64,000 nt of DNA, from NCBI GenBank assembly GCA_963695855.1, contig CAVOHZ010000003.1, positions 64,001 to 128,000 on the forward strand, given 5' to 3'. Below the pieces are notes generated by a model. That model was not told the origin of the DNA. It saw only the letters and a list, made by a program, of their open reading frames with translations, and searched no databases. Position 1 is the first letter of the stretch; every line of letters starts with the position of its first letter. The position numbers and the translations under genes are program-made. Positions 3,344 through 27,642 of this stretch are shown here, piece by piece. This DNA comes from an uncultured Nitrososphaerales archaeon (GTDB lineage Archaea; Thermoproteota; Nitrososphaeria; Nitrososphaerales; Nitrososphaeraceae).

Positions 3344-3998
3344 AATTCAAAATCTATTCAATAAATAATATAACGATCAAGATCAATTTCATTATAGAGA
3401 TAAGTGAATCTAATTTAACTTTTATAATTGATATATATTATTGACTTAAAATTGTGTGTATAATAGTTGTCATAGCCTGAACTAGATTTATTGATTGGGA
3501 TTATAGATACATACGAGTCCAGACTATATGATGACAACGACGACTTGGTGGTTTGCCTCTTGATTTAAGAGCGAAGTCATTTAGTGATAAATGAGGAATT
3601 TATTAATTTCTAAATTCCTTGTTTTCTATTTTGAAATTCGATAATATTTCTGATGAAATAATTTTTATTTTATTAGAAGCAACCAACCATTTACTAGTAT
3701 ATAGGTCTAATTACTCAGTAAAAAACACTAGCGATATACAAGTTTTATGACTAGTACATTTTAAGGGCTGTACTCTTCTTTAACAATCTTATGCGAAATA
3801 AAAATCTAGTCATTCTTTACGACGAAAACATTTACATATATCTTGATAAATCACTATTATCATCATCATCCTTCTTATTTTGTTATCTATATAGAATATT
3901 AAATTATTTTTAGAATAGTCCAGTGATAATTAAAACTTGATAAGATTGATTTTAAATACTTAAGAAAGTATATAAATGTGAAATAGATACAAGAGGCA

Positions 3999-4031
3999 AG
4001 TAATACCGATAGCGGTTCTAAAATATGGGTC
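3999..4031 (-). repeat. family B att-like repeat
   Basis: AGTAATACCGATAGCGGTTCTAAAATATGGGTC matches 9643, 13187, 14567 and 18739. Confidence 0.85.
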
Positions 4032-4113
4032 TTAGATATGTTAATACAGAGGATATAACATTTACGGATTAACGTTATATAGAAATAATGATAAAAGTTG
4101 AATTGTACTACTT

Positions 4114-5229
4114 TCACAATTTTTTAATAGTATTTAATAATACCTTTTTCTCAACTGGTTTTATCAATATTTGTTCTTTGGCTAAACCAGGAACTATAGT
4201 TAATATTTCATCTGATATATCTAAAACAGTTATAAAAAGAATTTTAATTGTTGGGTCTATAGCTTTTATTTGTTGGTGTAATTGAAATCCATTCAAACCT
4301 TTCATTCGGATATCAAGTGTCACTAGTAAATCATCAAAATTTGAAAGGGCTTTGATATAATTCAATGCATCAGTAGAGTCTGTAAATGTAATTGTTTCAT
4401 AACCACTTTCATTTAAAAATGATTTAAAAGTAAGAAGTATTTCTGGGTCATCATCGACTAAAATAATTTTTTTGTTATTATTTTTTTGTTGAATAAAAAA
4501 TAAATCTTTTTTATTTTTAGTTTCTATAAAATCATCAGTAGAGTAACCTAAGCATTTATTCCTAAGAGCGGGTTTAATACTACTATCATCAATCAACGAC
4601 AATTTAACTCTTTTTATACTATATGTGGAATAGACAAAAGTTTCAGTTATTTTACATCCACCATTATTTATGAAATTGTAATCGTTAGCAATATTAGAAA
4701 AAGATTTTAGTATTCTATAACAATTATCTCCTATAATTATTTGATTAGCGATAGAATTAGGAGAAGAAGAAGAATTTATCTTCGAACAGAGGTTTACAGT
4801 TGACCCGAATAAATCTATCTGGCTATAATCTCCCGTTAATGCTAAATCTACAGTACCATAATCCATACTAATTCTATAGCTGAATAGAGGCAAGTTTTGC
4901 TTTGATAATTCTTGATTAACAAGATGACGGACATCTAAGATTTCCAAACCACATTCAATAACTTCTCTAAATGCTTTTTCGTTTTTATTATCAGATGTTT
5001 TAGGAAAATATAATAATAAAGAATCACCCATATTTTTAATAACTTTCCCACCATAACTTTTAACTATTTCTGATATTGAATTTATAAATTTAGAATAATA
5101 GATTCTAATATGTTCTAAATTGTCTATGGTAATTGTATTTTTAGTTGAATCTACTAAATCAATAAAAACTACACAACTCTTTACTGTATCACCAGAAAAT
5201 CTAATTTCTTTTGAAGAAAAATTTTTCAT
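4114..5229 (-). CDS. class III adenylate/guanylate cyclase domain fused to a C-terminal receiver domain
   Basis: FIDLVDST, VIKNMGD, DLFGSTVNLCSK; REC motifs IILVDDD, LDIRM..LNG, FIT, KP. Confidence 0.9.
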   Translation of the reverse strand: MKNFSSKEIRFSGDTVKSCVVFIDLVDSTKNTITIDNLEHIRIYYSKFINSISEIVKSYGGKVIKNMGDSLLLYFPKTSDNKNEKAFREVIECGLEILDVRHLVNQELSKQNLPLFSYRISMDYGTVDLALTGDYSQIDLFGSTVNLCSKINSSSSPNSIANQIIIGDNCYRILKSFSNIANDYNFINNGGCKITETFVYSTYSIKRVKLSLIDDSSIKPALRNKCLGYSTDDFIETKNKKDLFFIQQKNNNKKIILVDDDPEILLTFKSFLNESGYETITFTDSTDALNYIKALSNFDDLLVTLDIRMKGLNGFQLHQQIKAIDPTIKILFITVLDISDEILTIVPGLAKEQILIKPVEKKVLLNTIKKL

Positions 5230-5288
5230 TTAATATTGCTCACAAAATTAAATAACTGAATGTTTTATTCTAGAATAAAAAATAAGTA

Positions 5289-5858
5289 TTAGTAGGATTT
5301 TTGAATATTATTTACAAAGCTAAGGAAGTTTTGAACTGAGTTGTTATAGTATTTTTGTCCAAGTTCTATAGATTTGTTAAAGTTTTCTATATATTCTAAT
5401 ACATAGTCATGTATTCTTCCTGTAGTATTTACTACTGTATTATTTGTAGTATTGTCGTTGGCATTATTATAAACATCTGTATATTTTTGTGGATAGATAA
5501 ATTTATTCCAATAAGATTTGTTATTGTTGAATGTATTATCTATAAATTTAGAAAATACTGATTGATAGGTAATAAGTATATTCTTTTGTAAATCTACGTA
5601 ATTGTCTGAGATTGAATGAATTACGTTAATGGTTTGTTGTTGATATTTGTTTGCAGTATCTATACTTTTTTGAAGATTATAATTATTTGTATTTTGAGAT
5701 TCATTGATAGCATTAGTAACCTTATTTGTAGTATCTTGAATATTTGATGTTGACTTTTCTACCTGTCGTTTTTGTTGGTTTGCAAAGTTCTCTGCTTCTT
5801 CTTTTATATAGTTACTTGGTTTTTTATTTTCTTCTTTTAAATTTGTCATATTAAACAA
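5289..5858 (-). CDS. N/Q-rich helical hypothetical protein (phasin-like)
   Basis: Shares YQ.QTI....I..(N/D)(Y/F)...QK with ORFs 17844 and 24584; the phasin assignment is inference. Confidence 0.7.
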   Translation of the reverse strand: MFNMTNLKEENKKPSNYIKEEAENFANQQKRQVEKSTSNIQDTTNKVTNAINESQNTNNYNLQKSIDTANKYQQQTINVIHSISDNYVDLQKNILITYQSVFSKFIDNTFNNNKSYWNKFIYPQKYTDVYNNANDNTTNNTVVNTTGRIHDYVLEYIENFNKSIELGQKYYNNSVQNFLSFVNNIQKSY

Positions 5859-6496
5859 AGTTACGTGAGCTTAGGTACCTTATAAATTATAATAAAATAG
5901 AAAAATAAAAGTAAGAATTAGATAATATTATACTAAAATATGTATAAAATAGATATTAGTTCATATGTTTTATATTACTAACAAGTTAACTGTTTATTTT
6001 AGCAAAAAATGGAAATTATCTTCTAGTCCACTTACAATAAGCCCTTTTTGGATGACAAATTCTAAAGAGAATTTAATTAAATTAAATATACTTTTTGTGA
6101 TATAATAGAACTATTAGCAAATGATTCATTTTCTTTTCCAAACTTAAGGTAAATTCATAAATTTAACAGAACTCTCTCAATTGACTATAATATAGTTATA
6201 GTAAATCTTATGAATCGTGATATATCTAATCAAAGATTGTAATATTCTCGTCTAAAGATTTCATATCAATAAATTTTAAATTTTATCTGAATAAGAAATG
6301 TAGTAACTACTAGTAGTCTGTCAATTGTAACGAAAAAACCGTAAGTAGTTGAATAAGTTGTAGAACTGAATCATTTATAACACAATTCTTTGGTATTCAA
6401 GCTATTAATAATAAAAAGAAATCCTATAATAAGGAGTATTAGTCTGACTACCTTTTTTTATACTTGTTTTCAAAATAGATGAATCCGACAAAACTG

Positions 6497-6576
6497 TGGG
6501 CACATCGGGATTAGAATCCTCCATGTAGTAGGGTTCTATTACATACTGTTTAGCTTTTATTATTAGAAACTTAATT
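6497..6576 (-). repeat. family A att-like repeat
   Basis: TGGGCACATCGGGATTAGAATCC...GTAGTAGGGTTCTA...TTTAGCTTTTATTATTAGAAACTTAATT; homologous to 14442-14522 and 2014-2059. Confidence 0.8.
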
Positions 6577-6881
6577 AAAATATAAAAATCAAAATCCGTT
6601 TAAAAGTTTGTCATTTATCTTACTGAGATTTATTATGGAGAGCATCTTTTTGAATTAATATGAACATCATTTTATAAAAAGAAATCCCTAATTTGGATGC
6701 CTCAAAATCTATATTTTTTATTGTTTCATTATTTGATGAAGATAGTATAAATTCATCAATAATTTTTTTGAATTTAAAATCATCATGGTGTTGGAACACA
6801 AGCCTAGTCTATCAATATAGTTATTATTAGTTTCTTAGAAATGTTAATGACAGGCATGCATAACGTTTGACTAATAGTATT

Positions 6882-7079
6882 CTAGAAAGACCAAAGATAA
6901 ATGAATACTATATAAGAAATCGCATACCATAATATACTATTTACTATTAGAGTAAATAAAAAACCAAAATAATATGTCATAATAATTCCAGTAATAGTAC
7001 CACCTATCAGATAAGGGATTTGTCGTTTTATTATTGACTTTAAAATTGCATCCAAATTACAACAATAAATACACAACAT
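6882..7079 (-). CDS. small membrane protein (possibly a fragment)
   Basis: Hydrophobic PYLIGGTITGIIMTYYFGF...W segment. Confidence 0.45.
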   Translation of the reverse strand: MLCIYCCNLDAILKSIIKRQIPYLIGGTITGIIMTYYFGFLFTLIVNSILWYAISYIVFIYLWSF

Positions 7080-7336
7080 CCTATAATAGTAGCAGTAGCA
7101 GCCCAGTTTTGCAGTCTTTTTCTTTTTTTGATAAACTTAATCTTCCTTCATGAATCTCTATAAAAATTCTAAAACGGAGAGAATTAACATAAGTATAAAA
7201 TAAACTCTGAAATAACTTATTATATGTCACAAGCTGAATGGTTTACGACTTATTTACAATACGAAAATCTTAAAGATATGTTAAGTGTTATACTCTATAC
7301 ATCATAATCCTTTATGACTATAACCCCATTACTTTA

Positions 7337-8263
7337 GGTAATACCTACATAGTTGGAGCAGATTTTATCATTAATTTTGATAATTCATAGAAAATATCCT
7401 TCTCCCTGTTATTGAATCTGAATTCTATCTCTTTTAGATATACATGAAAATACTGTTTAGGTACTCCCCTGTAATGATACAACCATGTCTTGGCATAACT
7501 CCAGAATCCTTCAATTCTATTAATATGGGTATCTTCTCTTACATATTCATCTCTTCCATGTGCAACGACTTGATGTTTTCCAATCATATTCAACATTGCA
7601 TATGCAGTATGGTCATCAGAATAGTACAACGATCCTTTCTTGGTATATTGTTTTATCAAGGGAATAAGTGTCTCATGTTTTCTATCAGATACTGGAAATG
7701 TAATAACAATTCCATTTCTCTTGTAGATACCAAATACCAGATTTTTGTGCTCAATTACACCCCATCCTCTCTTGCCACCTTTTCTATAACCACCAAATAA
7801 CGCTTCATCAATTTCAATCTCACCAGATAACTTTAATTCATGTAGTTGTTGTAGCGATTTATCATATATCGTTTGTCTAAATAATCGAAATGTTCTTTCT
7901 ATTGTTGATAGATCACATGATACATAAAATCTAATTCTATATGCAGGTACTCCTAATGTAAATAGATAAAGTAAGTGTATGATATTGCTAAGCGATGTTC
8001 GTATCTGTCCGAGATATGTACCTGTAAATTCACTAAAATTATATCTGCAACGTTTACAGCCATACCTATTTGATTTCAGATAATATAGAAGTCTATACCT
8101 ACATCTAGGACATATTCTTTTTCCATTCCATCTAAGATTACGAAAATATATACTACTTTTCTTATCGCTTGATGCTAGGTCTATTGGATCATATTTACGC
8201 ACAAATATGTATAAAATAACATATCATGTGTTTATTTTTTGCTCCAAATGTACAGGTATTACC
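7337..8263 (-). mobile_element. complete IS1595-family insertion sequence (927 bp)
   Basis: 24-bp imperfect TIRs GGTAATACCT..A.A.TTGGAGCA; 8-bp TSD TTACTTTA at 7329-7336 and 8264-8271. Confidence 0.95.
7345..8202 (-). CDS. IS1595/ISXO2-like transposase
   Basis: Zn finger CPRC..CKRC; EIDE, YSDD, HIN.IEGFW, YL.E..FRFN.R. Confidence 0.95.
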   Translation of the reverse strand: MRKYDPIDLASSDKKSSIYFRNLRWNGKRICPRCRYRLLYYLKSNRYGCKRCRYNFSEFTGTYLGQIRTSLSNIIHLLYLFTLGVPAYRIRFYVSCDLSTIERTFRLFRQTIYDKSLQQLHELKLSGEIEIDEALFGGYRKGGKRGWGVIEHKNLVFGIYKRNGIVITFPVSDRKHETLIPLIKQYTKKGSLYYSDDHTAYAMLNMIGKHQVVAHGRDEYVREDTHINRIEGFWSYAKTWLYHYRGVPKQYFHVYLKEIEFRFNNREKDIFYELSKLMIKSAPTM

Positions 8264-8678
8264 TTACTTTATAATATTACATATCAAAATAAAGAAATAC
8301 TGTTTGTCCACACAGGAATAGTTGGAGGCATTATTTCTCATTATTATGTAATTCAAGATAAACCAAATAAGAGGTATATTGAATTAAATAAAATCACAGG
8401 AGACTTCAATTTTATAGATACTATTGGTAATAATACTCAATCAATTTATATTCCAATAGTAAAATTGATAAAATCTACACTTAAGTTTCCGATAGATTCT
8501 GTGGATGAAGATTAATGTACATACTTGACAAAAGAGATTTGGCATTTATTAATAACGGCGAGTAATTACCGTCAAACTTTCAAGAAAGAATTTTTTCACA
8601 ACAAATTTAGTTCCCACTACTACATTAGAGGGATTGGTGTCAGGGTCATCATTATCACATTTTAATTTCATTACAACA

Positions 8679-9020
8679 TCATTTCTTTAAAAAATCTATT
8701 GTAGATTTAGTATCTTGAAAGATTTTTGATTCTTTTAATATAAGATTATTGAAATCAGATGAAATATCAAGAGGAGTATTGTTAAGGGTGATTATACATT
8801 TGATACCAGCCTTGTTTGCTGCTTCTACTCCCAAAGGACCGTTTTCTACTACTATGCATTCAGATGGTTTTAGATTGATTTTCTGTAATGCTTTAACAAA
8901 TGGTGTAGAATGTGGTTTCCCCTCATCTATATCATCAGCAGAGATTAGAATATCAAAATTTTTCAATCCAATCAATTTATCAATAGTTGTTTCTATCTCA
9001 TTCTTTTCTCTGACACTCAA
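8679..9020 (-). pseudogene. HAD-superfamily hydrolase, C-terminal fragment
   Basis: GKP..TPF, C.VVEN.P.GVEAA..AG are present; the N-terminal DxD motif is missing. Confidence 0.75.
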
Positions 9021-9224
9021 AAATCAATACTATACAACAATTATATATTTAACCGTATACAGTACACAAAATTTGATAATTGTTTCATCTATTGATCTAA
9101 ATAAGATAGTAAATTCAATATTTATTCTGTTTACTGTTAAATATTTATTTATTAGGTTTATTTATCTTACATCTTTTTAATTATCTTTGTTGAAAATGAA
9201 TAAAATAAAGCTTTTTCCTATAAG

Positions 9225-9574
9225 TCAACTTAATAACTTTAACACATTGCTAATAATTTGTGCATGATCTGCTTCTACTTCTGTAGTAATAAGCATAAAT
9301 GCTCATCATCTAATGGAATAGTAATTCGTTTAATTTTTTCATATTCTGTCATTGAATATTTTCCTTTTCCTGTTTTTGGAGATAAGAACTTTCTCAATCC
9401 CCATCCTTCTAAAGCTTGTAAATTTGATTTTCTTGTTTCTTCATTAGTTAGGATATTTTTTACTCCTTCTTTTTGACCACCATGTTTTATATTTCCAGAT
9501 ACACCACATATTCATGCAAATCTTACTTTAGAATCCATCTGTAAAATAGATCTACATAAATTATCATAGTCCAT
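9225..9574 (-). pseudogene. thaumarchaeal roadblock-like (DUF6659-type) protein pseudogene
   Basis: MDYDNLCRSILQMDSKVRFA*ICGVSG...GKGKYSMTEYEKIKRITIPL; internal TGA plus a 3' frameshift. Confidence 0.65.
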
Positions 9575-9642
9575 ATATTAAATATTCAAAAATACAAATA
9601 TTAATAGTTTTTAGATACTTATTAATTTAGCGAATACACAAC

Positions 9643-9687
9643 GGGCCCGTCGGGAGTAACACCGATAGCGGTGCTAAAATAAGAGTC
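9643..9687 (-). repeat. family B att-like repeat with tRNA 3'-end-like part
   Basis: GGGCCCGTCGGGAGTAACACCGATAGCGGTGCTAAAATAAGAGTC; 40/45 identical to 13187-13231. Confidence 0.9.
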
Positions 9688-9856
9688 CAATTTTATATAA
9701 TATATATGTAAATTTAAGATTATATTGTATGTTTATAGTTATAGAAATTAGAATTCTAAATAAAATAGAATAAAACTCGAATATAATAGTGATTGCAAAA
9801 TGTTATAGAAAATAGTTATCTCCGTTTATAGCCAATCGCTAAAAAGGAATTTGAAT

Positions 9857-10501
9857 TTATTGTATTATCAAAACAGGTTTACTAATATGATTCATTATTT
9901 TTCTGACATCACTAAATAATGAGCTAAACCATGAATCTATATGATAAGTTAACATAACGACCAAATCATAGCTATTATTATTAATTTCATTCACTATTTC
10001 GTCAACTACATTACCAGTTAGAAATTTATAAGAAATTTTATTTTGACATCCAGCTTCTTGACATTTCTTTATTTTTTCTTCCATAGCATCTATTACATCA
10101 CCTTTGATATTTCTATGAAACTCTTTTTGATTATCCTTTTCTGATTTCTCATATGAGCCTTCTAAGGAAACATTTCCAAATTTTTCAAAATCGTGTAATA
10201 TACGAAGTATAATTAATTCTGCTCCAGTGGAATTGGATAAAGAGACAGCATAATTAAGTGCTTTATTTGATATATCTTTTCCATCATCAGTAACTAGTAT
10301 TTTCTTAAAAGAAGGAAGGTTATCTTTTGAAATTGAATAATCTTGTAATTCCCTGGATTTATTTCCTAATTGTGATTGTTGTTCTTCTTGTTCTATTTCT
10401 GGTGTAACACTTCCGTCAGGATGAATTGATTCACTTACTTCCATATCTAAAAGATTTTCTTTAGCATCTGAAGATATAGAAGGAGCTTTATCACTACTCA
10501 T
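9857..10501 (-). CDS. universal stress protein (USP)
   Basis: KKILVTDDG...S.KAL.YA..L; G...DEIV, DLVVM, KPVLII. Confidence 0.9.
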   Translation of the reverse strand: MSSDKAPSISSDAKENLLDMEVSESIHPDGSVTPEIEQEEQQSQLGNKSRELQDYSISKDNLPSFKKILVTDDGKDISNKALNYAVSLSNSTGAELIILRILHDFEKFGNVSLEGSYEKSEKDNQKEFHRNIKGDVIDAMEEKIKKCQEAGCQNKISYKFLTGNVVDEIVNEINNNSYDLVVMLTYHIDSWFSSLFSDVRKIMNHISKPVLIIQ

Positions 10502-10960
10502 AATATAATGGTTGATTACAAATATATAACTATATTTTAATTCATAAAAATATAAATCCTAATTATTTTATAATACAAGACAGATCATTGCAATATGGGT
10601 AACTGTATACGTAATTATCAAAGTTACAGAAATTAGTATAAAATTTAATAAGCTAAGCAAAATGTTAAAATAACAATTTTTAAATGAAAAATCTAGTCTA
10701 TCAAAAAATGAATAAATTATCATACTATTTTTATTATGTTCATTAGGAAGTAACAATTTTTTTCACATTATACAATTATGAAAATAAATTTTGCAAAAGA
10801 TTGAAATAGATGATTAGGAACCAAATGCCATTGTAATTAAATTAAATCTTATTATCATTGTAACTATTTAATATAAATTACTAACCATCTTCTCATTCAG
10901 GTGAATTGGCTCTTTAAAAGACATAAAGAGGTGTGTGTATAGATAATTGTTATTTGTTAT

Positions 10961-11497
10961 TTGGGGAAAAAAAATAATATAAGTAATAATAGAATTTTCA
11001 ATAGATTTCTTACTAATTTTTACAAGAAATATAGAGAAACTATTTTAATGAATAAGGATTTACTTATTGCTGGGACATTTGGATTTTTAGCTAGTGCTGT
11101 TATAGCTGAACTATATGCGATTTATTCTCCTAATGACGTATTAACTTCTACAGTAACAGTATTGGTTGGATTTATAATATACAAGATAATTTTTATAATT
11201 CTTTTTCACATCGACAACAGACAAAAATATACCGATAAATTCACTAGCCAGATTAATTTCAATATTCTAAAACAAATAATAAAGAAGATGGTATTTGCTT
11301 GGTCTATATTTGACATTGTTAACAATCTATCACGATGGATAATACTATTTGAATTATTATTAACAGGATTCAGACCCTTTGAAGCAGCTATGATATCTTC
11401 TATAACTGCTTCTTCTATATCTTATTTAGCAATAAATATAATCTCAAGACGTATCAAAATCTTCTCATCATTAAAGAAGAAGAAAAGACCAAAATGA
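10961..11497 (+). CDS. hypothetical integral membrane protein
   Basis: About four hydrophobic segments; intact ORF. Confidence 0.75.
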   Translation: MGKKNNISNNRIFNRFLTNFYKKYRETILMNKDLLIAGTFGFLASAVIAELYAIYSPNDVLTSTVTVLVGFIIYKIIFIILFHIDNRQKYTDKFTSQINFNILKQIIKKMVFAWSIFDIVNNLSRWIILFELLLTGFRPFEAAMISSITASSISYLAINIISRRIKIFSSLKKKKRPK

Positions 11498-11937
11498 AAA
11501 TAATGCAAAAGATTTCTTATAATTTAAAATAAAACATTCCCAAGATGTCTAGAACTTATACAATAAACAAAGTGTATCTACACAGAATGATTATGCGCTA
11601 GATACTATTACATTAGTTAATATACGCAGGTAACTTATGTACAATTATATCACCAAAAGAGGAAAAAAATACAACTAAATTTAGGACAGACAACACCTTT
11701 TATTATTTAGAAATATATTTTAAAATTAATTTCTGCATTGAATCTAACTTTAAATATTATGCTTTAAATTAACTATATACTATATAATTCATTTATATTA
11801 TTTAATTCTACTTTATGTTATGTCCTATATACACAAAAGCATCCGAAACAACGGATGGCCATACATAACATTTAAAAAATTAAATATTAATAAAATTCGC
11901 TCTAATAGAAAATATATCAATAATATTTAGGAATTAA

Positions 11938-11969
11938 AAAATAATGTAACAATATTGTTACATTATTTT
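11938..11969. terminator. perfect 32-bp palindrome directly after a stop codon (possible terminator or operator)
   Basis: AAAATAATGTAACAAT|ATTGTTACATTATTTT abuts the stop of ORF 11970-12392. Confidence 0.5.
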
Positions 11970-12392
11970 CTATTCAACTAGATTTCCGCCGTGAATTTTT
12001 AATAATCTTTGTAGAATCTCAGCAGCAATATATCCTTTAACAGTTTGTTTGAGATCAAGACCCGATAATTCTTGGACAATTGTAGCAAATTTTGGATGTT
12101 TTGCCTTGATTTCTGATGCTTTTGCCTTGATTTCTTCTTCTGTCATATATTCCTCTAACGGTGAACGACTCTGACCAGTTCTTTTTTCCTCAACTAGATT
12201 TCTGGCATGTGATTTTAGTATTCTCTGTAAAACTCCCGCTACAAAATAAGCTCTGAAAGTTTCTTTCAGATCAAGATCAGGAATTTCTTCAACAATTGTA
12301 GCATACTTTGGATGATTTGTTTTAAATTCTGATGCTTTTGACTTAAATTCTTCTCTTGTCATTCTAATATCTTCTAAAATGGTTGTCATCAT
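11970..12392 (-). CDS. hypothetical protein with two 58-aa internal repeats
   Basis: MT.EE.K.KASE.K..HPK.ATIV.E...LDLK.T...Y..A..LQR.LK.H..NLVE occurs twice. Confidence 0.8.
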   Translation of the reverse strand: MMTTILEDIRMTREEFKSKASEFKTNHPKYATIVEEIPDLDLKETFRAYFVAGVLQRILKSHARNLVEEKRTGQSRSPLEEYMTEEEIKAKASEIKAKHPKFATIVQELSGLDLKQTVKGYIAAEILQRLLKIHGGNLVE

Positions 12393-13186
12393 AATGTGTA
12401 TATAATAATGGATATATAACTATTTGTATCTCTGGAATAGATATATTTATATATATTGAAGAATCGAAGAAACATATTGCATAGTATTGCAAAACATTAC
12501 AATATATGTCAATAACAAAGTATTAAATTTACAAATCTATACTTGCATACGATTTTATATAACCCAATTAAAATACTATTATTCATATATTTAGCTAATC
12601 TGAATGACTTTAGTAATACTATGTGAGGTATAAACCGACCCTGGCGAAGAATGGTAATCAGGCATTAATACAACACAAAAAAGTTCTCCATTCTTGAACA
12701 CTTAAATAGCTGTAATGGCATATTATAGTACCACTAAAATCTCTATAGCGTATTTTTGCGGCACTAACCTTAATCAATCTGATGCGGAGAGAAAAAAAGA
12801 AGTATATAACATTAACCTATGGAGAATCTTTATGCCCATTTGGTGGATTACTTAATACATTTGTCTCCTAGATGACTAGATGTTGTCTCCTTTTTTTAAT
12901 ATATTTGAACGGATTTAAAGAAACATTAAATGGACCAACACCTACTGCGCCTCCAATATTAATTTCTCTTGCTGTACTTTCAGTTGATGCAACTTCGCCA
13001 ATTATTAAATCATACCCACAAACACGACAAAAGGATACTAAATTCACATGAAGAAGTATAACAGTAAATCTAAAAAAATTTAAGTTTAATAATTTTTGTG
13101 ATAATACATACCGAACTTAAGGAAGCATTATTTGAATAATTCAATTATTGTTTGAAAATCCAAAGAGGTGGGCCATAGAATACTTC

Positions 13187-13231
13187 GGGTCCGTCGGGAG
13201 TAATACCGATAGCGATGTGAAAATAAGAGTC
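13187..13231 (-). repeat. family B att-like repeat with tRNA 3'-end-like part
   Basis: GGGTCCGTCGGGAGTAATACCGATAGCGATGTGAAAATAAGAGTC. Confidence 0.9.
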
Positions 13232-13282
13232 TTCTGTTAAGTAAATAAAATAATATTTATGAATTCTTTTATGATAGTATAC

Positions 13283-14233
13283 TTATCTTAACAATTTGTT
13301 TGAAATAAATTCATGTAATTGTGAATCAGACATATTCTTTTTTGCTTGTGCAAAGGTTTTAGCATCTTCTCCTACTGTATATCTGAACAAATATTCTGAA
13401 GAATTTGAAATATTTTTAATTGCTTCAAGTATTACAGTAGCAACTTCTTTTGGTGATGGAGCATTATTCATAGCAGAATAATAATGAGATAGAAATGTAT
13501 CGATAGTATTGGAATAATATGAAGAATTATTTTTCTTAGTATCATTATTAGAATAATTAACTTTTAGTTCTTCTTTCTGTTCATCTTTCAATAGAGGTTC
13601 TTGTAATTTATTGTCAATTTGATTTGGAAATTTAATATTTGGTACAAAATTAGTATTGATAACACCTGGTTCAATAAGGATTACTTTAATTCCATATGGC
13701 TGAAGCTCATAGGATATAGAGTCACTTAATCCTTCTAATGCAAATTTTGTACTTACATATATGCATTCTGCAGGTATTCCTACTACGCCTGCAAGAGAAG
13801 TTACATTTATGATTATCCCATTTTTTTGTTTTCTCATAGCGGGCAAAGTTTCTTTAATAGTTCTCATTGCTCCAAAGAGATTTGTTTCGAACTGTTTCTT
13901 TGCTTCGTCTATAGATATCTCTTCCAAAGCACCAAATAAACCATATCCGGCATTATTTATCAAAATGTCAATTTTCTTTTTTTCATCAAGTATTTTGTGT
14001 ATCGCATTTCTTACTGAATCATCATTATCAACATCCATGGATAAAACTTTTAAAGGAAGATTCTCATTATTTGCAATTTTTTCGATTTTATCTCCCTTAA
14101 GTGTATCTCGCATTGTAGCATATGTATAAAACCCATTTCTTGCAAGAAATAATGAAGTTTCAAATCCTATTCCAGTTGAACTACCGGTAACTACTGCAAT
14201 ACTCTGTTGTTTTTCCATTCTAATCTTAGGCAA
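13283..14233 (-). CDS. short-chain dehydrogenase/reductase
   Basis: TGSSTGIG, NNAG, YVSTK (YxxxK), IEPG. Confidence 0.95.
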   Translation of the reverse strand: MPKIRMEKQQSIAVVTGSSTGIGFETSLFLARNGFYTYATMRDTLKGDKIEKIANNENLPLKVLSMDVDNDDSVRNAIHKILDEKKKIDILINNAGYGLFGALEEISIDEAKKQFETNLFGAMRTIKETLPAMRKQKNGIIINVTSLAGVVGIPAECIYVSTKFALEGLSDSISYELQPYGIKVILIEPGVINTNFVPNIKFPNQIDNKLQEPLLKDEQKEELKVNYSNNDTKKNNSSYYSNTIDTFLSHYYSAMNNAPSPKEVATVILEAIKNISNSSEYLFRYTVGEDAKTFAQAKKNMSDSQLHEFISNKLLR

Positions 14234-14441
14234 TTACAAAATATACAAAAATATAATTCTATAGTTGACTATTACAATAGATTTATGGTAATTATTGTTA
14301 TTTTTTAAAAATAGTTCAAATTTATTATTAGTAGCAATTAAACGCACTATGTATCTTGACTTTAATCTTTTAATTCTTCTAAATATTTCATAATACTATA
14401 ATCGTGTTCCACCTTAATAGTATGGTTCATCCACATATTCA

Positions 14442-14522
14442 TGTAGTTCATCGGGAGTTAGAATCTGCACGTAGTAAGGTTCTACAACATTGTATTTAGC
14501 TTTTATTATGAGAAACTTAATT
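14442..14522 (-). repeat. family A att-like repeat
   Basis: CATCGGGAGTTAGAATCTGCACGTAGTAAGGTTCTA...TTTAGCTTTTATTATGAGAAACTTAATT, homologous to 6497. Confidence 0.8.
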
Positions 14523-14566
14523 TTAATTATTTTTCAATTATTCACAAAGTATAGGAACTTGAAATG

Positions 14567-14611
14567 TGCCGCGGAGGAGGTAATACCGATAGAGGTGCAA
14601 AAATACGAGTC
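14567..14611 (-). repeat. family B att-like repeat carrying a different tRNA-like 3' end
   Basis: TGCCGCGGAGGAG followed by GTAATACCGATAGAGGTGCAAAAATACGAGTC. Confidence 0.85.
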
Positions 14612-14783
14612 GAATAAGGAGGATAATATTTATGATTATTTATAATTGAGTTATTTGAAATATTAATAATTCAAAATTCATAGATAATATTAATTAAGAT
14701 TTATGGAAAATATACAAGAAGAAGAAACTAAAAAGACTAAAATTGAAAGTGAATAATATTAATTTAGAAATTGAATTAATATG

Positions 14784-16400
14784 TTAATCTGCAATTGGCA
14801 ATGTAAATCTAAATGTTGCCCCCTTACCATCCAAATTATTTTCTGCCCAAATTTTACCACTATATGCTTCTATAATATTCTTACAAATATATAGTCCCAA
14901 TCCTGTTCCTGTACTAGAATCGCCAGTTGTAAACTTTGAAAATAATTTGGGTAATACTTCTTTTGAAATACCCGCTCCAGTATCCTTAACACTTACAATG
15001 GCTTGTTCTATTCCTTCTTCTTTTTTCATTTTATCTACAATAACAAATATTGTTTGATTGTTATACTTAGTAGTAAATTTTATAGCGTTATCTACAAGAT
15101 TGCGAATTACTTGAGCTAATCTATCTCTATCTGATTCTACAATAATATCATTAACATATTTGAAATCATAACAAATTTTTATCGTTTGTTGTTTTAATTC
15201 CTTTTTCACATATTCCTTTAAAACTTCAGATATCAAAACATTAAGATTTAATTTTTCTTTTTTAAGCATTAAAGATTGACCTTCTATTTTTGTAACATCC
15301 AACAGGTTGTCACTAAGCCGTTTTAGTCTGTATGCATTTCTCATAATAATGTCTAACAATTCATGTTGTTCTTTATCTTTAACCTTTGAATAGATAATAT
15401 CTGTTAATCCTAGTATAGGCTGAATAGGAGTTCTCAATTCATGTGCAGCTATATTAATAAATTCTGACTTCATTATTTCAGATTCCTTTACTTTTTCATA
15501 TTGTTGGCTAAGCATCTCATTGCTTTCTCTTAATTTAATATTATAGTGAATACTTGATAAGGCTAATCCAATAATATTGATAAAATAACTTGAATCTTTT
15601 AAGACATGAGCAATATTATGTGCAGTGTCAAAGTGTTGTGACGAGTATGACATTATTATTTGTGCAAAAACGTCGAATACGAGGGAAATAACTATGCTAA
15701 TATAGAGAACATCTCTATTTTTATAAATTCTATTCTTATAGAAATAATATAAGGAAAATAATAATAATGCTAATGGAAAAAGTTCATAAGGTCTATGTAT
15801 AGGAATATTGTCAATCACAGAAAAAGGAAAAATAACATAAAGTGAGCTTATAGTTACAATAGAAACAAATAAAGTAATTGCTATTAAGTAAAGTAAAATC
15901 GGTTTTGATAATATACTTTCATTATTCTGGTGAGAGAATACTTGTTGTCCTTGTTGTTTTTGTTGTTGTTTACTTGAATTAACAGATAAAAAAGAATTAT
16001 ATTTAAAAATTGCTATAGCAAACATTGCACTAAGAAATAATCTTCCAGCAAACCAAGTCTGTGGAATAAAATATTTCAAGAATAAAATATTATCCATATT
16101 GAGCAAAGAAATTGTAACATGTAACAAATCAATTAAAGCATTAACTAGAAAACCAATGCCAATGAATAGACTAAATTTATCATCAAATGCAAGAGCTCTA
16201 GAAATATAATAGAATGCAAGTATTCCAGCAAAAATTGTTCCAAATAGTTCTATATAAAAATGATGTATAGGTGATGACACCCATAAATATGGGTTGGCAG
16301 ATATCACAGCAATTACTGAAAGAGAAATTGAAGGAATTAAAATATATTTTAATATATGACTCGTCTTATCATTAGTCTTTAAAAGTAAATTTAGTGGCAA
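14784..16400 (-). CDS. membrane sensor histidine kinase (MASE3-like multi-TM domain + HisKA + HATPase)
   Basis: AAHELRTP, NLVDNAIKF, D.G.GI, GTGLGL; many TM segments. Confidence 0.95.
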   Translation of the reverse strand: MPLNLLLKTNDKTSHILKYILIPSISLSVIAVISANPYLWVSSPIHHFYIELFGTIFAGILAFYYISRALAFDDKFSLFIGIGFLVNALIDLLHVTISLLNMDNILFLKYFIPQTWFAGRLFLSAMFAIAIFKYNSFLSVNSSKQQQKQQGQQVFSHQNNESILSKPILLYLIAITLFVSIVTISSLYVIFPFSVIDNIPIHRPYELFPLALLLFSLYYFYKNRIYKNRDVLYISIVISLVFDVFAQIIMSYSSQHFDTAHNIAHVLKDSSYFINIIGLALSSIHYNIKLRESNEMLSQQYEKVKESEIMKSEFINIAAHELRTPIQPILGLTDIIYSKVKDKEQHELLDIIMRNAYRLKRLSDNLLDVTKIEGQSLMLKKEKLNLNVLISEVLKEYVKKELKQQTIKICYDFKYVNDIIVESDRDRLAQVIRNLVDNAIKFTTKYNNQTIFVIVDKMKKEEGIEQAIVSVKDTGAGISKEVLPKLFSKFTTGDSSTGTGLGLYICKNIIEAYSGKIWAENNLDGKGATFRFTLPIAD

Positions 16401-16507
16401 TAGATTAATCTATTCCTTTATATTTTTGTTAATATATTTATATGAACGAAAAAAATAGACATGGAGTTAATTATTAATATATTATTCAATACTGAATGCA
16501 ATTTTTA

Positions 16508-17676
16508 TTAATTTAATAATCTATTTACAGTATTTGTAAATAGCTTTCTATCAACAGGCTTTCTCATTATTTGTTCTTTTGATATACCAGGAACTACACT
16601 CAACAATTCGTCTAATATATCCAAAGCTGTTACAAACATAATCTTAATTGTTGGGTCTATAGCTTTTATTTGCTGATGTAATTGAATTCCATTCAAATCT
16701 TTCATTTTGATATCAAGTATTAATAATAAATCATTAAAATTTGAGAGGTCTTTGATATAATTCAATGCATTAGAAGGGTCTGTAAAAGAAATTATTTCAT
16801 AACCATTATCCTTTAAAAATGATTCAAAAGTAAAAAGTATATCCGGTTCATCATCAACTAAAATGATTCTTCTTTTGTTTTGTTATTGTTATTGTTATTG
16901 TTATTGTTATTGTTATTGTTATTGTTTTTTTTATGAAAAAAAGATGATTCTTTTTCTTTACTTTTAGTTTCTATAAAATCCTCAACAGGGGAACAGAACA
17001 ATTTCTTGCTAAAAGAAGAATTTATAGTACTAATATCATCAATCGACAATGATTTGTTAACTTTTTTTATACTGTATGTAGAGTATCTAAATTTTTCATT
17101 TATCTTATATTCACCATTATTTATAAAATTATAATTGTTAGCAATATTAGAAAAAGATTTTAATATCCTATAACAATTGTCTCCAATAATTATCTCATTA
17201 GGAATAGACAGTGAAGAAGAATTAATCTCTGAACAAATATTTATAGTTGAACCAAATAAATCTATCTGGCTATAATCACCAACTAAAGCTAAATCTAGAA
17301 GACCATAATCCATACTAATTCTATAGCTAAATGGGGGAAGATGCTGCTTGGACAATTCTTGATTAACAACATATCGCTCATCTAAGATTTTCAACCCGCA
17401 TTCAATCACTTCTCTAAAAGCGTTTTCGTTTTTAGTATCAGATGCCTTTGGAAAATAGAATAATAAACAATCACCAATATTTTTAATAACTTTCCCACCA
17501 TAATTTTTAACTATTTCTGATATTGAATTTATAAATTTAGAATAATAGATTCTAATATGTTCTGAATTGTCTATGGTAATTGTATTTTGAGTAGAATCTA
17601 CCAAATCAATAAAAACTACACAACTCTTTATTGAATCCCCTGAAAATCTTATTTGTTTTGAAGAAAAGTTTTTCAT
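16508..17676 (-). pseudogene. cyclase-REC paralog of 4114-5229, split by a 1-bp frameshift
   Basis: The other frame continues KRRIILVDDEPDILFTF into ORF 16508-16765; the break is at the end of the (AACAAT)n tract. Confidence 0.85.
16882..16926 (-). repeat. (AACAAT)7 AAC microsatellite encoding poly-Asn15
   Basis: Counted directly in the sequence. Confidence 0.95.
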
Positions 17677-17843
17677 TTACAGTTTTGCTCCTTAAAATTA
17701 TTAATTAAAAATGGAATTTATATTTTATTATTATTAGTATAAGGTATTAGATTTAATAAAATCTTTTTTTTCTTATCTTAAAATAATACCAACATTATTG
17801 GGCTAGGTTAAATATTAAAACCTAGTTAGTCGGTCTTCCATTG

Positions 17844-18470
17844 TTAATGACTAGTAGTAGTATTTCCCTCTTTATTTTGGCTATTGACTGATTGTACTAC
17901 TGATGTTATATAATCAGTATTTGTTTTTGTCAAAACCTTCACATTATCACGTGTTTGTTCAAGTGCTGTGTTATATACTTTCATATTTGATGCTAGAGTG
18001 TTATTTATAAGATTAGTGGCATTTAACAGGTAACTCGTAAAGTTATTTACCATTACCGCATTATTCTCAGCAATTCTTTGTGGATTAAAAAAATCCCATA
18101 ATCTATTGAAGTTTACATTACTATTATTATCTGCTTGTTGTGATTGAAAAGAGCTTACTACTTGTTTTTGTGCTTCAATAAAGTCAGAAGCAATATCTTT
18201 TACAGTTTGGATAGTTTTTTCTTGATATTCAGCAATACGTTGTGTATATTTTGGAATTTCCCGACTAGCTTCATCTGTACTTCTTTTTATATTATGTAGA
18301 GTGTTATCTAGAGTCTTGTTTATTGCATCTTGTTGTTGATTTAAGGTGTTATTTGTTCTTTCATTGAAATTATTATTGTCTTTGTTAAATTTAGTTGTAT
18401 TTTTTTCATTAAATTCTGGTTCATTTACAGCTATATTTTCGTTTATTTTTACTTCTTTTTTTGCTGACAT
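17844..18470 (-). CDS. N/Q-rich helical hypothetical protein (phasin-like)
   Basis: Close paralog of 24584-25189; likely start MSAKKE. Confidence 0.75.
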   Translation of the reverse strand: MSAKKEVKINENIAVNEPEFNEKNTTKFNKDNNNFNERTNNTLNQQQDAINKTLDNTLHNIKRSTDEASREIPKYTQRIAEYQEKTIQTVKDIASDFIEAQKQVVSSFQSQQADNNSNVNFNRLWDFFNPQRIAENNAVMVNNFTSYLLNATNLINNTLASNMKVYNTALEQTRDNVKVLTKTNTDYITSVVQSVNSQNKEGNTTTSH

Positions 18471-18738
18471 AATTATAGTTACATTACTAATGTTATATAA
18501 ACTCATGTAATGATGTCTTTTTAATAGTCATATTTACATAGGTATATATAATTTATTTATTTATTTATATAATTGAAGGTAATATAATTTATAATACAGC
18601 AATAAAAAGCAGAATCATGTAATTCTTACTATTTGATTCATACGATTCAGACATCTTATAAATTTAATAATTCATGATAAAACGCTGGTAGGTAAGTAAG
18701 TATTGATATTGATATAAAAGATGAAATATGTCTAGCAT

Positions 18739-18774
18739 GGACTAATGCTTATAGTGGTACTAAAATAAGAGTCT
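18739..18774 (-). repeat. family B att-like repeat (degenerate)
   Basis: 29/36 identical to the 9652-9687 copy. Confidence 0.75.
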
Positions 18775-18903
18775 AAGGTATGGTAATAAAGAAGATAATA
18801 CCTAGGATTTACTTTTCATATTTTTAAAATAGATATTAATGTACAGTTACTATAAAAATTAATATTGTGTATGTTTTTCAGTATGTCGAAAAATATTAAA
18901 TTA

Positions 18904-19170
18904 TTAGTCATTTTTGATGGTAGTAGTAGCTTGTAATAATTCGCCCATTTCATTATGCATTTTGAGATAGTTTAGTCCTTTTTCTGTAGTCTTGAATGTT
19001 TGAGTCACATCAAGATATTCTATTAGATTGTTTTCTGTCAAAACAGAAAGATATTCCTTTAATTGTGCATAACTTAGAAAAGCTTTGTACATAATTTTTG
19101 TCTTTGTTGCTCTTCCATTTGCAGCGTCCAGTATATTACCCACTATTTCCGTTCTACTTCTATATTTCAT
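18904..19170 (-). CDS. winged-helix transcriptional regulator
   Basis: MKYRSR.EI..IL.A...KTKIMYKA.LSY.QLK.YL...TTEKG. Confidence 0.9.
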   Translation of the reverse strand: MKYRSRTEIVGNILDAANGRATKTKIMYKAFLSYAQLKEYLSVLTENNLIEYLDVTQTFKTTEKGLNYLKMHNEMGELLQATTTIKND

Positions 19171-22117: not shown

Positions 22118-23536
22118 TTGGCTAATGGACTAGATATCTTTATTTCATATAAGCGCGGAGAAGGGGATAATGCGGCCAGAGAGATAGAGAATTACCTTAC
22201 TCACAAAAAAAATTATTCAGTATTTAGAGATGTTGACAGGATAGATGGAGAAGAAGACTGGAAGCAGAAAATTATAAGATCAATAAAAAAATCAGATATT
22301 TTCATACTAGTATTAACTCCTTTTGCTTTATCAAGTGTAGAAGTACAGAAGGAGGTAAGAGAGGCCCAGAGATGGAAAAAAAGAATTCTTCCATGCAAAC
22401 TAGATACTATACATATCGAGGAACTGAAATGGAATCTGGGAAAATTAACTATAATCGAGTATTCTGAAAGAAATATTTCTGCTCTCTTGCTATCCATCGA
22501 TAATTCAATCGACACTTTTTTATCTGAAAAAAGAAAACAGTTAGTAAAAAAAGGAATCTCGACAGCTCTATCGATAGTAGCAATAGGATTGGTTACGTAT
22601 ATTTTACTGGGTTATTTTTTAAATCCACAAATAGAGATCAGTTACGAGTCTAATCTTAATATTATAATAGGAACAGATTATGCCCAAATGTTTGTAAATC
22701 TTTCCAGACCTTTTGGTATATCAGTAGATACCTTAGATAACGTGTATGTCGCTGACACCGGAAACAATAGAATTCAAAAGTTTACATCTGATGGTAACTT
22801 TATTAAAAAATGGGGAAGACTTGGTACAGATCCAGGTAAATTCTCCAGACCTAACGGTATAGCAGTAGATACCTCAGGTAACGTGTATGTCGCTGACACC
22901 GACAACAATAGAATTCAAAAGTTTACATCTGATGGTAACTTTATTAAAAAATGGGGCGGAGAGGGTACAGATCCAGGCAAATTCTCCTTTCCTAACGGTA
23001 TATCAGTAGATACCTCAGGTAACGTGTATGTCGCTGACACCTACAACAACAGAATTGAAAAGTTTACATCTGATGGTAACTTTATTAAAAAATGGGGAAG
23101 ACTTGGTACAGATCCAGGCAAATTCTCCAGACCTTCCGGTATAGCAGTAGATACCTCAGGTAACGTGTATGTCGCTGACACCGGGAACAATAGAATTGAA
23201 AAGTTTACATCTGATGGTAACTTTATTAAAAAATGGGGAGAACTTGGTAAAGACATATTTGAATTCTCCTTTCCTTCCGATATAGCAGTAGATACCTCAG
23301 GTAACGTGTATGTTGCAGACACCGACAACAATAGAATTCAAAAGTTTACATCTGATGGTAACTTTATTAAAAAATGGGGCGGAGAGGGTACAGATCTAGA
23401 CAAATTCTCAGGTCCTTCCGGTATATCAGTAGATACCTCAGGTAACGTGTATGTCGCTGACACCTACAACAACAGAATTGAAAAGTTTGCATCTGATGCG
23501 ATATCTATACGTAATAACATCATTGATAGACCTTAA
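22118..23536 (+). CDS. TIR domain + single TM + 6x NHL beta-propeller protein
   Basis: DIFISYKR, VF.D, W...I...I..S..FI.VL, S..V.KE; TM at about aa 146-168; six P.GI.VD..GNVYVADT.NNRI.KF repeats. Confidence 0.92.
   Translation: MANGLDIFISYKRGEGDNAAREIENYLTHKKNYSVFRDVDRIDGEEDWKQKIIRSIKKSDIFILVLTPFALSSVEVQKEVREAQRWKKRILPCKLDTIHIEELKWNLGKLTIIEYSERNISALLLSIDNSIDTFLSEKRKQLVKKGISTALSIVAIGLVTYILLGYFLNPQIEISYESNLNIIIGTDYAQMFVNLSRPFGISVDTLDNVYVADTGNNRIQKFTSDGNFIKKWGRLGTDPGKFSRPNGIAVDTSGNVYVADTDNNRIQKFTSDGNFIKKWGGEGTDPGKFSFPNGISVDTSGNVYVADTYNNRIEKFTSDGNFIKKWGRLGTDPGKFSRPSGIAVDTSGNVYVADTGNNRIEKFTSDGNFIKKWGELGKDIFEFSFPSDIAVDTSGNVYVADTDNNRIQKFTSDGNFIKKWGGEGTDLDKFSGPSGISVDTSGNVYVADTYNNRIEKFASDAISIRNNIIDRP
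22700..23497 (+). repeat. tandem 141-bp NHL-coding repeats (5 full + 1 partial), near-identical DNA
   Basis: Unit starts at 22700, 22841, 22982, 23123, 23264, 23405. Confidence 0.95.
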
Positions 23537-23585
23537 CAGATACTTTATAATCTCTAGACTGAATCTTGTAGTTCTGTAATAACTA

Positions 23586-24240
23586 TACTGCCTAACATAA
23601 TTTCGCTAATCTATTGTTCTCATTAGATATTTTACAATATTCAGATTGAATCTTGTTGTTCTGTAATAACAACAAATATTGTATTTTAGATCGTCAAACA
23701 TAGGATAATAAGTAGAAAGTATATGATACTTACCCTGTCTCCAGCATTCTTCTACTGCATTAAACTCCGGTGAACCAACAGGAAAGTATTCCAATCTGAT
23801 GGTATTTTTATTTATTTGAATCAAGAAATCGTCTTGTAATCTTTGAACAGTGAGGTGTTGCTCTATCCACAACAATTACAATTTTACCAAATGTTTCTTT
23901 CTGTACATGTTTTAGGCAGTCAACAAATGTACTGCTATTAAATTTATCATATTGTTTGAATAATTGTTTACCATCTAAAGATAAACAACCAAATACAATT
24001 GTTCTTTTACGAGAACCAGTTACTATAAGCACAGGTCTTTTTCCTTTTGAGATCCATTTCTTTCTTTTAACTACATAATCGTATACAAATATTGATTCAT
24101 CCTGTACAAGTACAGTCCAATCAGAATTTAGATTCTCAAGAATCTGTTTTATTCTTTTTTGAATTTCATTTTGTCCTTGCATGATACAGTATTTACAAAT
24201 CTTTTCTGCGGTACTTTAGACTTGAATCCATACACTTGGC
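23586..24240 (-). mobile_element. IS630-family transposase remnant (frameshifted)
   Basis: QDES, VVDRATPH, P..SPEFN.VEECW in two frames. Confidence 0.85.
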
Positions 24241-24583
24241 TTAAATCTAAAATTTGCTTTTATTTATTCTAAAAATAGGAGTAAAAATCCCTCGCAACCC
24301 AACGGACCAGTACTTTTCTCGGGTTCATCCACTTCAATTCTTTTTTATCTATGATCTGTCTCGCTGTCTCTAAAGTGATTCTGCCCTTGATACTGACTTC
24401 TTGGAGTATCCAAATGATAATGATAATATCTAATGAAATGACTTAGAAAATATTGATGAATATATGTAATTGCTAATATATTACCTTCAATTATACAAAT
24501 AAATAGATCATACATACAGAAATATGACTATCCAATGGACATCAGTACATACGTTTGTATATCTTAGTAACGTATATATAATC

Positions 24584-27468: not shown

Positions 27469-27568
27469 ACTAGTTTTTCCCTCTCCTTTTTCTGGTTGTC
27501 TGAGTTGATATCACAACTACTACTGTCTATTTTATTGTACGAATTAGTATTTAATCCCAATTGGTCAG

Positions 27569-27642
27569 TGGGCCTAAAGGGGTTTGAACCCTTGACCTAC
27601 CGGTTATGAGCCGGTCGCTCTGCCAGGCTAAGCTATAGGCCC
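27569..27642 (-). tRNA. tRNA-CAT, most likely tRNA-Ile2 (agmatidine type)
   Basis: GGGCCTA...CCGG-CTCATAA-CCGG...GGTTCAAA...TAGGCCCA cloverleaf; the GGGCC acceptor is Ile-like. Confidence 0.9.

Follow-up and report, generated by a model that had tools for sequence, protein, structure and literature searches.

Two questions are raised by the stretch of DNA analysed here (64,000 nucleotides (nt) of contig CAVOHZ010000003.1 from an uncultured Nitrososphaerales archaeon, hereafter the window): why one conserved intergenic sequence, the B arm, runs on the minus strand into 3' neighbours that differ from copy to copy, and why some of these neighbours look like the ends of tRNAs. The original prediction held that a single recombinase crosses over in the T-loop region of several tRNAs, and that the tails of three B copies keep a record of three tRNAs visited. 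Two of these tails carry one and the same tRNA-Lys(UUU) 3' end, which is that of a published integration site, and the third has no tRNA match. The B arm recurs throughout the clade in arrays that run on one strand, and it is probably the conserved right-end arm, on the attR side, of small integrated units in low-GC Nitrososphaeraceae.

The B arm and its tails in the window

The B arm reads GACTC.TATTTT...ACCGCTATCGGT.TTAC on the minus strand, followed by a variable tail, and constitutes the 38-nt core of a modular intergenic repeat. The three arm-tail strings of the original prediction were all found in place (...CTCCCGACGGGCCC ending at 9643, ...CTCCCGACGGACCC at 13187 and ...CCTCCTCCGCGGCA at 14567). 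A 17-nt pattern of the core gave four matches in the window at up to three mismatches, against a mean of 0.07 in 100 shuffles, and an nhmmer search with a B profile located five copies, all on the minus strand (E-values from 5e-11 to 1e-8, the next match having E = 1.3), adding two at 3986-4044 and 18728-18786 to the three already noted. Each copy lies 39-160 nt past the stop of a minus-strand gene. The core of copy 1 (3998-4035, E = 1.3e-10) is found downstream of a cyclase/response-regulator gene (stop at 4114), that of copy 2 (9654-9691, E = 5.2e-11) 157 nt downstream of a Usp gene (stop at 9857), that of copy 3 (13198-13235, E = 7.3e-10) 39 nt downstream of an SDR gene (stop at 13283), that of copy 4 (14578-14615, E = 8.8e-10) downstream of a histidine-kinase gene (stop at 14784), and that of copy 5, the most diverged (18740-18777, E = 1.1e-8), downstream of a winged helix-turn-helix (wHTH) gene (stop at 18904).

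The tail of copy 2 (9630-9655, minus) begins with TCCCGACGGGCCCG (9642-9655), which comprises the last base of the T-loop, the 3' strand of the T-stem (CCCGA), the acceptor strand (CGGGCCC) and the discriminator G of tRNA-Lys(UUU), and continues as a sub-class, GTT.TGTATTCG. The tail of copy 3 (13167-13199, minus) is a D1 module, formed by the same tRNA-Lys end (13186-13199) and a diverged copy of its conserved downstream flank. The identification comes from NitEve-E1, NitVie-E5 and NitGar-E5, three elements all residing in tRNA-Lys(TTT), for which a 17-nt attachment (att) site, (A)GCGGGCCCGTCGGGATT, is listed (Table S2, Krupovic et al. 2019, PMC6563490). Read as its reverse complement, the published site contains the whole 14-nt tail, TCCCGACGGGCCCG, which makes the att cores identical; the tails of copies 2 and 3 agree with it in 14/14 and 13/14 positions, respectively. 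In the longer, 66-nt att of NitGar-E5 (PMC6563490), TCGGGTTC appears eight bases past the tRNA end (...GGGCCCG), at the same distance as in D1. Therefore, D1 is the tRNA-Lys end together with its conserved flank, and the 14-nt tails are the mere start of longer repeated modules, the tRNA-Lys module measuring about 37 nt with the flank included.

The tail of copy 4 (14528-14581, minus), which ran to 14567 in the original prediction, is a diverged member of another class, D2 (consensus TCCCTCCTTGG.ATATTTCAA); it is not tRNA-like and runs into the next P1 leader and A arm, described below. The D2 consensus has TTGG.AT where this copy has GCGGCAC, and the CCGCGG of the tail is private to the window copy. 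The tail of copy 1 (3986-3999, minus) is of a class related to D2. Against the six tRNAs compared, the best scores of the tails at 9643, 13187 and 14567 were 3, 4 and 6 mismatches of 14, the last being the mode of 2000 shuffles, i.e. chance. None of the tails matches any of the four tRNAs of the window, in agreement with the earlier remark that they differ from the resident tRNA-Met(CAT) end, and the three window tails other than those of copies 2 and 3 (14567 included) gave no match in Table S2 of PMC6563490 and chance scores against the six tRNAs. Thus, the resemblance to a T-stem plus acceptor strand, claimed for all three tails, holds for 9643 (exact) and 13187 as the end of a single tRNA-Lys, and fails for 14567, which belongs to a recurrent class that does not look like tRNA.

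The TCGG/CCGA hairpin that had been likened to a T-arm at 9643 and 13187 is present in the letters (4-bp stem, 8-nt loop) but does not stand out as a fold (z = -1.07 and +0.43), and the minimum-energy fold of copy 9643 pairs CACCG with CGGTG instead. The proposed crossover in the T-loop region is supported by the alignments, in which the arm/tail boundary falls at the T-loop/T-stem border and three unrelated arm types join in the same register. On these matches the original prediction appears right in that tails can be tRNA 3' ends, joined at this border. Two further readings of the pieces were rejected by eye: taken as a degenerate tRNA half (anticodon arm plus T arm), B has stems that fail to pair, and taken as coding sequence after the ATG of the A arm, D1 shows an in-frame TAG in its common variants and an in-frame TGA in the B variants.

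Arrays of the B arm in the Nitrososphaeraceae

A single degenerate scan of species-representative genomes with the core pattern matched at least 113 stretches, and all copy and locus counts given here are lower bounds. Among the 111 loci listed (denoted by L and a number), 110 are archaeal, from at least 24 assemblies by accession prefix and of Nitrososphaeraceae type; the other, a Rhizobium record, was taken as a chance match. A profile search of the listed loci and the window gave at least 195 distinct B copies in at least 109 loci, and 77 of the 195 lie outside the scan pattern, so that the scan undercounts. The invariant part of B is TAGACTCT-TATTTT.G.ACCGCTATCGGTATTAC-TCCC. Neither the B core nor the D1 strings were found in the literature searched.

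The arm is intergenic, one copy in 118 lying inside an open reading frame (ORF) of at least 80 amino acids (aa), and its upstream neighbour usually turns its 3' end towards it (91 of 121 at ≤400 nt). The genes around B were convergent in 34 of 86 resolved contexts, co-directional on the strand of B in 28, divergent in 16 and co-directional on the opposite strand in 8; ordinary gene pairs of the same loci comprise 235 co-directional, 95 convergent and 90 divergent. In 44 of the 45 loci with two or more copies every copy lies on one strand, and neighbouring copies, at a median spacing of 2252 nt, are co-oriented in 84 of 85 pairs (binomial P = 2e-24 at even odds). These one-strand arrays do not follow from the genes in between, since the ORFs of at least 100 aa found between copies are distributed on both strands (93 on that of B and 62 on the opposite one). 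This cargo is diverse and accessory in character, and among its members are sensor kinases, hydrolases, metal and ion transporters and regulators.

The wHTH protein encoded upstream of copy 5 in the window (18904-19170, minus; HTH_45, PF14947, E = 3e-19) is also recurrent cargo, with at least 19 ORFs in at least 16 loci, sometimes several per locus, and in at least four loci its gene is the immediate upstream neighbour of a B copy, as in the window; the protein may be a DNA-binding partner of the arms. The second commonest neighbour of B copies elsewhere (at least 24 ORFs in at least 18 loci) is an Asn/Gln-rich protein, its family unassigned, with three copies in the window (5289-5858, minus; 17844-18506, minus; 24524-25189, plus).

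Modular junctions and exchange of partners

Upstream of the core lies an A/T-rich leader, P1 (GTTTCTAATAATAAAAGCTAAATAC or a variant), which also precedes a second arm, A, containing GTAGTAGAACCCTACTAC. A profile of P1 plus A gave 142 matches at E ≤ 1 in the listed loci and the window, many of them running on into B rather than A. Both arms hold a dyad (ACCG-N4-CGGT in B, GTAGTAG-N4-CTACTAC in A), and the stretch common to the junctions after the arm is TAC-TCCC(GAC). The sequences further downstream belong to a few recurrent classes. Among 188 readable B copies, 87 tails start with TCCC and 72 with TCCCGAC (at most one mismatch); the TCCCGACGGGCCCG 14-mer is present in 37 at up to two mismatches and in 18 exactly, and 20 tails are of class D2 (TCCCTCCTTGG...). 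The commonest module is D1, TCCCGACGGGCCCG-TAGTTTTC-TCGGGTTCA, to which the tails at 9643 and 13187 belong, directly or as a sub-class. It was found 52 times among the listed loci and the window, 38 times after B, six after A and eight in other contexts, three of which are a third arm ending ...GGCTATTCAAC, and the register of the joint is always identical.

Homology blocks between the window's island and the listed loci end at the edges of the core (3999/4002, 13192-13196, 14580, 14611-14615 and 18739/40). The same could be seen over all copy pairs, where alignments restricted to the left side end at core positions 35-40 and those restricted to the right side begin at -1 to +5. The stretch around B copy 1 (3862-4032/4039) is 85-86% identical to L005, L011 and L060. 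The unit carrying the SDR gene (13196-14503) has counterparts of 87-90% identity in L015, L039 and L045 with different right-hand partners, D1 being the partner in the window and D2-P1-A in L015. As sequence evidence, such breakpoints do not tell whether the exchange within the shared core was site-specific or homologous.

Other modules of the window show further combinations. A P1 leader with an A arm (copy 3, 14440-14527, minus, E = 1.8e-12) directly follows the tail of B copy 4, upstream of the SDR gene, and another (copy 2, 6476-6581, minus) is followed by a diverged D1, TCCCGATGTGCCCA at 6497-6510 plus a flank-like stretch. A lone D1 module in the opposite orientation (24298-24330, plus) is placed beside an IS630-like remnant, upstream of a paralogous cargo gene. 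In L111 (394-500, plus) an A arm with a tRNA-Lys end is directly followed by an apparent inverted, diverged B core, an arrangement that looks like a head-to-head fusion of two junctions at the palindromic CGGGCCCG.

Integrases and the tRNA-Met island

In L060 an A arm is followed by TCCCGACGGGCCCG and, after about 110 nt, by an integrase gene whose product is 51% identical over 328 residues to P0008, a protein that carries PF00589. The window offers a related arrangement, in which a diverged A-type arm (2029-2090, minus, profile E = 6.3e-18) is fused to a 19-nt copy of the true tRNA-Met 3' end (2010-2028, minus, 19/19 against the resident tRNA-Met). Directly past this copy and a second, partial one (1985-1995) lies a broken tyrosine-integrase gene (1427-1965, minus) of the same family as that of L060. 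Nitrososphaeraceae proteins about 390-450 aa in length share 69-79% identity at their N-termini with its first piece of 83 residues, and six of the twelve listed carry PF00589; by tblastn, residues ~1-180 of ~440 are covered. One integrase family is thus found beside a tRNA-Met-type att copy (window), a tRNA-Lys-type att (L060) and, in L038, a tRNA-Arg(GCG) gene. Junctions with the 3' part of a tRNA occur in the window at 9642-9655, 13186-13199 and 2010-2028, and not at 14567; an integrase beside an att is seen in L060 and in the window (1965-1427).

The tRNA-Arg(GCG) of L038 (30-106, plus) has one T-stem mismatch and is followed by an N-terminal integrase fragment. The tail of a B copy 2.3 kb downstream (2445-2511, plus), TCTCTACGGGCCCG, appears intermediate between the ends of tRNA-Arg and tRNA-Lys.

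The tRNA-Met(CAT) gene (27568-27642, minus) marks the start of the island as its proximal att site and the copy at 2010-2028 its distal junction, so that a direct-repeat att pair is present for the whole of it. The island (~2010-27568) has about 25% GC, and ORFs of at least 100 aa cover 61% of it, compared with 95% over 30-64 kb. An alternative genetic code was rejected as the cause of this sparse coding, as reading TGA or TAG as sense adds only 3-7 points to the 61% of the standard code. The host is of low GC and uses the standard code, and the relatives of the window's proteins and repeats come from metagenome-assembled genomes labelled Nitrososphaeraceae or Nitrososphaerales.

Cargo and neighbourhood of the island

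The cargo of the island consists of two cyclase/response-regulator paralogues (one of them broken), a histidine kinase, SDR, Usp, wHTH and TIR-NHL proteins, together with insertion-sequence remnants of the IS1595, IS630 and IS5 types. Transposase genes or fragments of these types were located at 7345-8202 (minus), 23606-24182 (minus), 25391-26122 (plus) and 26415-27148 (plus), and one IS630-like copy abuts the ORF beside tRNA-Met. The paralogues (4114-5229 and 16508-17676, both minus) share 78-85% DNA identity; the second is split, with a 12-nt repeat run (16880-16927) that encodes poly-Asn beside the break. A TIR-domain protein fused to six NHL repeats (22118-23536, plus) is possibly of a defence type, and its NHL repeats are encoded by 141-nt tandem DNA repeats (22562-23566) with 73-90% mutual identity.

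Directly downstream of B copy 2, a DUF6659-like ORF (9275-9574, minus) contains one in-frame TGA and gives 99 aa on read-through (Pfam E = 1e-4, short of the curated cut-off); it may be a pseudogene or hold a recoded codon, and DNA 94-95% identical to it is found in L009 and L014. Just past the broken integrase, a DUF899 gene (340-1098, plus) in a stretch of 38% GC may delimit the accreted region or be part of an older element. Beyond the tRNA-Met gene, ARAGORN placed a tRNA-Arg(CCG) at 28640-28737 (plus), below the cut-off of the Rfam tRNA model, whose length of 98 nt presumably reflects an intron.

Origin of the arrays

If the B arm is, as is probable, the attR-side arm of integrated units, each junction would consist of the P1 leader, one of the alternative arms (B, A or the third), TAC-TCCC(GAC) and whatever lay across the crossover. 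The right partner of the largest class would be the tRNA-Lys(UUU) 3' end with its conserved flank, that is, the core of the tRNA-Lys-specific tyrosine integrases of Nitrososphaerales, and that of the other classes the left end of another unit. Repeated integration into the same type of core, be it the tRNA gene or an older att copy, would push older units along, and the repeated use of att copies would lead to arrays on one strand, with units accreted in tandem and shuffled at the arm/core junction. Most units, devoid of an integrase of their own, would be decayed elements or would have been moved in trans. The acting enzyme would be a tyrosine integrase, the arm would be bound by it or by an accessory protein, and units may still be moving. 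Because the window array (3986-18786) lies inside an island bounded by tRNA-Met, its tRNA-Lys-type cores would be left from junctions formed elsewhere or at secondary att copies.

Several observations weigh against this origin. The tRNA-Lys-like tails amount to only 37 of 188 and the D2-like ones to 20, the remainder being mostly unclassified. For the tRNA-Lys-type cores the matching intact tRNA-Lys gene expected of an attL/attR pair was not seen in the window or the 111 listed loci, and with only two tRNA genes in the ~0.75 Mb of listed B-containing loci the anchoring of arrays at tRNA genes is not established. Integrases or their fragments were found in only 4 of the 108 listed loci outside the window and PF00589 in one of 142 neighbour proteins scanned, the neighbours of the listed loci show no recurrent recombinase beside B copies, and the ORF beside tRNA-Met (27163-27426), considered as an integrase, had no Pfam or BLASTP support. 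The listed loci gave no candidate pair of occupied and empty sites. In the assembly CAWIYT01 B matches are spread over some 37 or more contigs, more scattered than a single array would be. Finally, in P1 a TAAATA box precedes the conserved start of A, and likewise that of B, by 28 nt, a spacing that we read as archaeal promoter geometry.

This last feature is the point of departure for a different explanation, in which P1 is the promoter of a transcriptional unit, A and B are operators, leaders or small-RNA genes, D1 is a co-opted tRNA-Lys terminator and the mosaic has been produced by homologous recombination. The dyad symmetries of both arms, typical of repressor sites, and the intergenic placement would suit it, and the homology breakpoints fit homologous exchange within the shared core as well as site-specific exchange. 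Yet the downstream neighbour is more often convergent than co-directional with B, so that P1 would often have nothing to drive, and the co-orientation of neighbouring copies far exceeds the strand mix of the genes between them. No stable or conserved RNA fold was detected (z from -1.1 to +0.75) and no Rfam match: a gathering scan of the whole window returned three tRNAs only, an E-value scan of 13100-14750 put nothing on the element with E < 4.9, and the alifold consensus was near zero, which also speaks against a structured RNA. Taken with the order of arm, core and integrase in L060 and at 2010-1427 in the window, these results make the transcriptional explanation unlikely.

Slightly less probable is the original prediction in its literal form, with one promiscuous recombinase and three tails that are the ends of three different tRNAs. 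It gains from the joining of related arms to a tRNA-Lys end (B, A and the third type) as well as to a tRNA-Met end (the A-type arm at 2010), and from the presence of one integrase family beside tRNA-Met-type, tRNA-Lys-type and tRNA-Arg(GCG) sites. The use of several tRNAs is, though, a property of the family and not of a single enzyme, given that the integrases beside different tRNAs are different genes, ~50-79% identical. It would also need a tRNA ending ...CTCCTCCGCGGCA in this genome, whereas the 14567 tail is a diverged D2 whose "acceptor" positions vary freely among copies and match none of the tRNAs examined, and the other two tails end in one tRNA. A miniature non-autonomous transposon or REP/PATE-like element, moved by a strand-specific single-strand transposase with the tRNA-Lys-like neighbour as its preferred target, would account for the dispersal over many contigs, often at contig ends, for the sharply bounded 38-nt core and for the small hairpin beside TTAC; the strict regional strand bias could then reflect the direction of replication. 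Nevertheless, neither terminal inverted repeats nor target duplications were seen, copies within a locus are not inverted (44 of 45 multi-copy loci), empty sites gave no candidates, and Y1/HUH transposases are absent from the 142 neighbour proteins scanned. The hairpin is not kept from copy to copy, and both flanks are a few recurrent classes that recombine freely instead of unique target DNA. Such an element is very improbable here.

Comparison with known systems

The interpretation of the B arm as the right-end arm of integrated units places it next to the published tRNA-Lys(TTT) elements, with which, as far as the available text of PMC6563490 describes them, it shares a tyrosine integrase and integration into the 3' part of a tRNA. 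Those elements are presented there as single units of 16-25 kb with their own integrase at a tRNA gene. Here, in contrast, the core occurs many times per genome behind a 38-nt arm, at a median distance of 2.25 kb and mostly without an integrase, and the tRNA-Lys-type array of the window lies inside a tRNA-Met island. Repeated use of att sites is also noted for archaeal tyrosine-recombinase elements in the same available text (PMC6563490).

A comparable accretion has been described in the tycheposon islands of Prochlorococcus, where, in the available part of the account, repeated integration at one tRNA att pushes older elements inward (Hackl et al., 10.1101/2020.12.28.424599). These islands likewise contain scattered, fragmented integrases and partial tRNAs, and adaptive cargo. 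Unlike the present system they are bacterial, with 1-2 elements per genome on average, and that part of the account describes no conserved arm common to hundreds of junctions (10.1101/2020.12.28.424599).

As in integrons, including archaeal ones (Ghaly et al., 10.1101/2022.02.06.479319, in its available part), short conserved sites form arrays on one strand. The available text of that paper contains no word starting with Nitrososphaer. In both systems the site lies at the 3' side of variable cargo, the recombinase is mostly outside the unit and modules are shuffled at the site; co-oriented copies that separate diverse cassettes are what was found here. Differing from integrons, the units are larger, often with several genes on both strands, and a tRNA 3' end serves as the core. 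No integrase of the IntI type was found, those present being PF00589 proteins of two unrelated families, with no search aimed specifically at the extra domain of IntI; no attC-like hairpin folded better than shuffles, the small dyad not being kept across copies, and no GTTRRRY/RYYYAAC pair was seen by eye.

In streptococci, cis-mobilisable elements that lack an integrase and are flanked by att sites accrete beside an integrase-bearing integrative and conjugative element, and can be moved by the integrase of the neighbour. Decayed or non-autonomous units still flanked by att copies would be common to that case and to the present one. The streptococcal accretions are pairs or short series, and here, in archaea, the arrays would consist of many small units whose arm is strongly conserved. 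By these comparisons the system is of a known kind, with a form that is unusually cassette-like.

A bolder version is possible, though doubtful. It amounts to an integron-like capture of genes on tRNA att sites, with hundreds of integrase-free cassettes of 1-5 kb in low-GC Nitrososphaeraceae, which are soil ammonia oxidisers. Each cassette would have at its end a conserved arm, P1 plus A or B, that acts in cis, measures about 100 nt and breaks off at the tRNA-Lys T-stem; tRNA-specific tyrosine integrases acting in trans would excise the cassettes and insert them at any att copy, building and reshuffling the one-strand arrays that would make up much of the flexible genome.

Implications for the Nitrososphaeraceae

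That repeated integration leaves partial tRNAs inside islands is known; it is the scale and regularity that stand out here. The 38-nt arm is conserved better than the genes around it throughout its at least 195 copies in one-strand arrays, and it sits where accessory genes switch partners between genomes. If the units have merely decayed, the arm still explains the structure of the island, and tRNA-Lys(UUU) would even then be a dominant integration target in the clade. If they are moved in trans, environmentally important archaea whose mechanisms of gene flow are poorly known would possess a cassette system, and in metagenomes the arm would also be a simple sequence tag with which to map their flexible genome.

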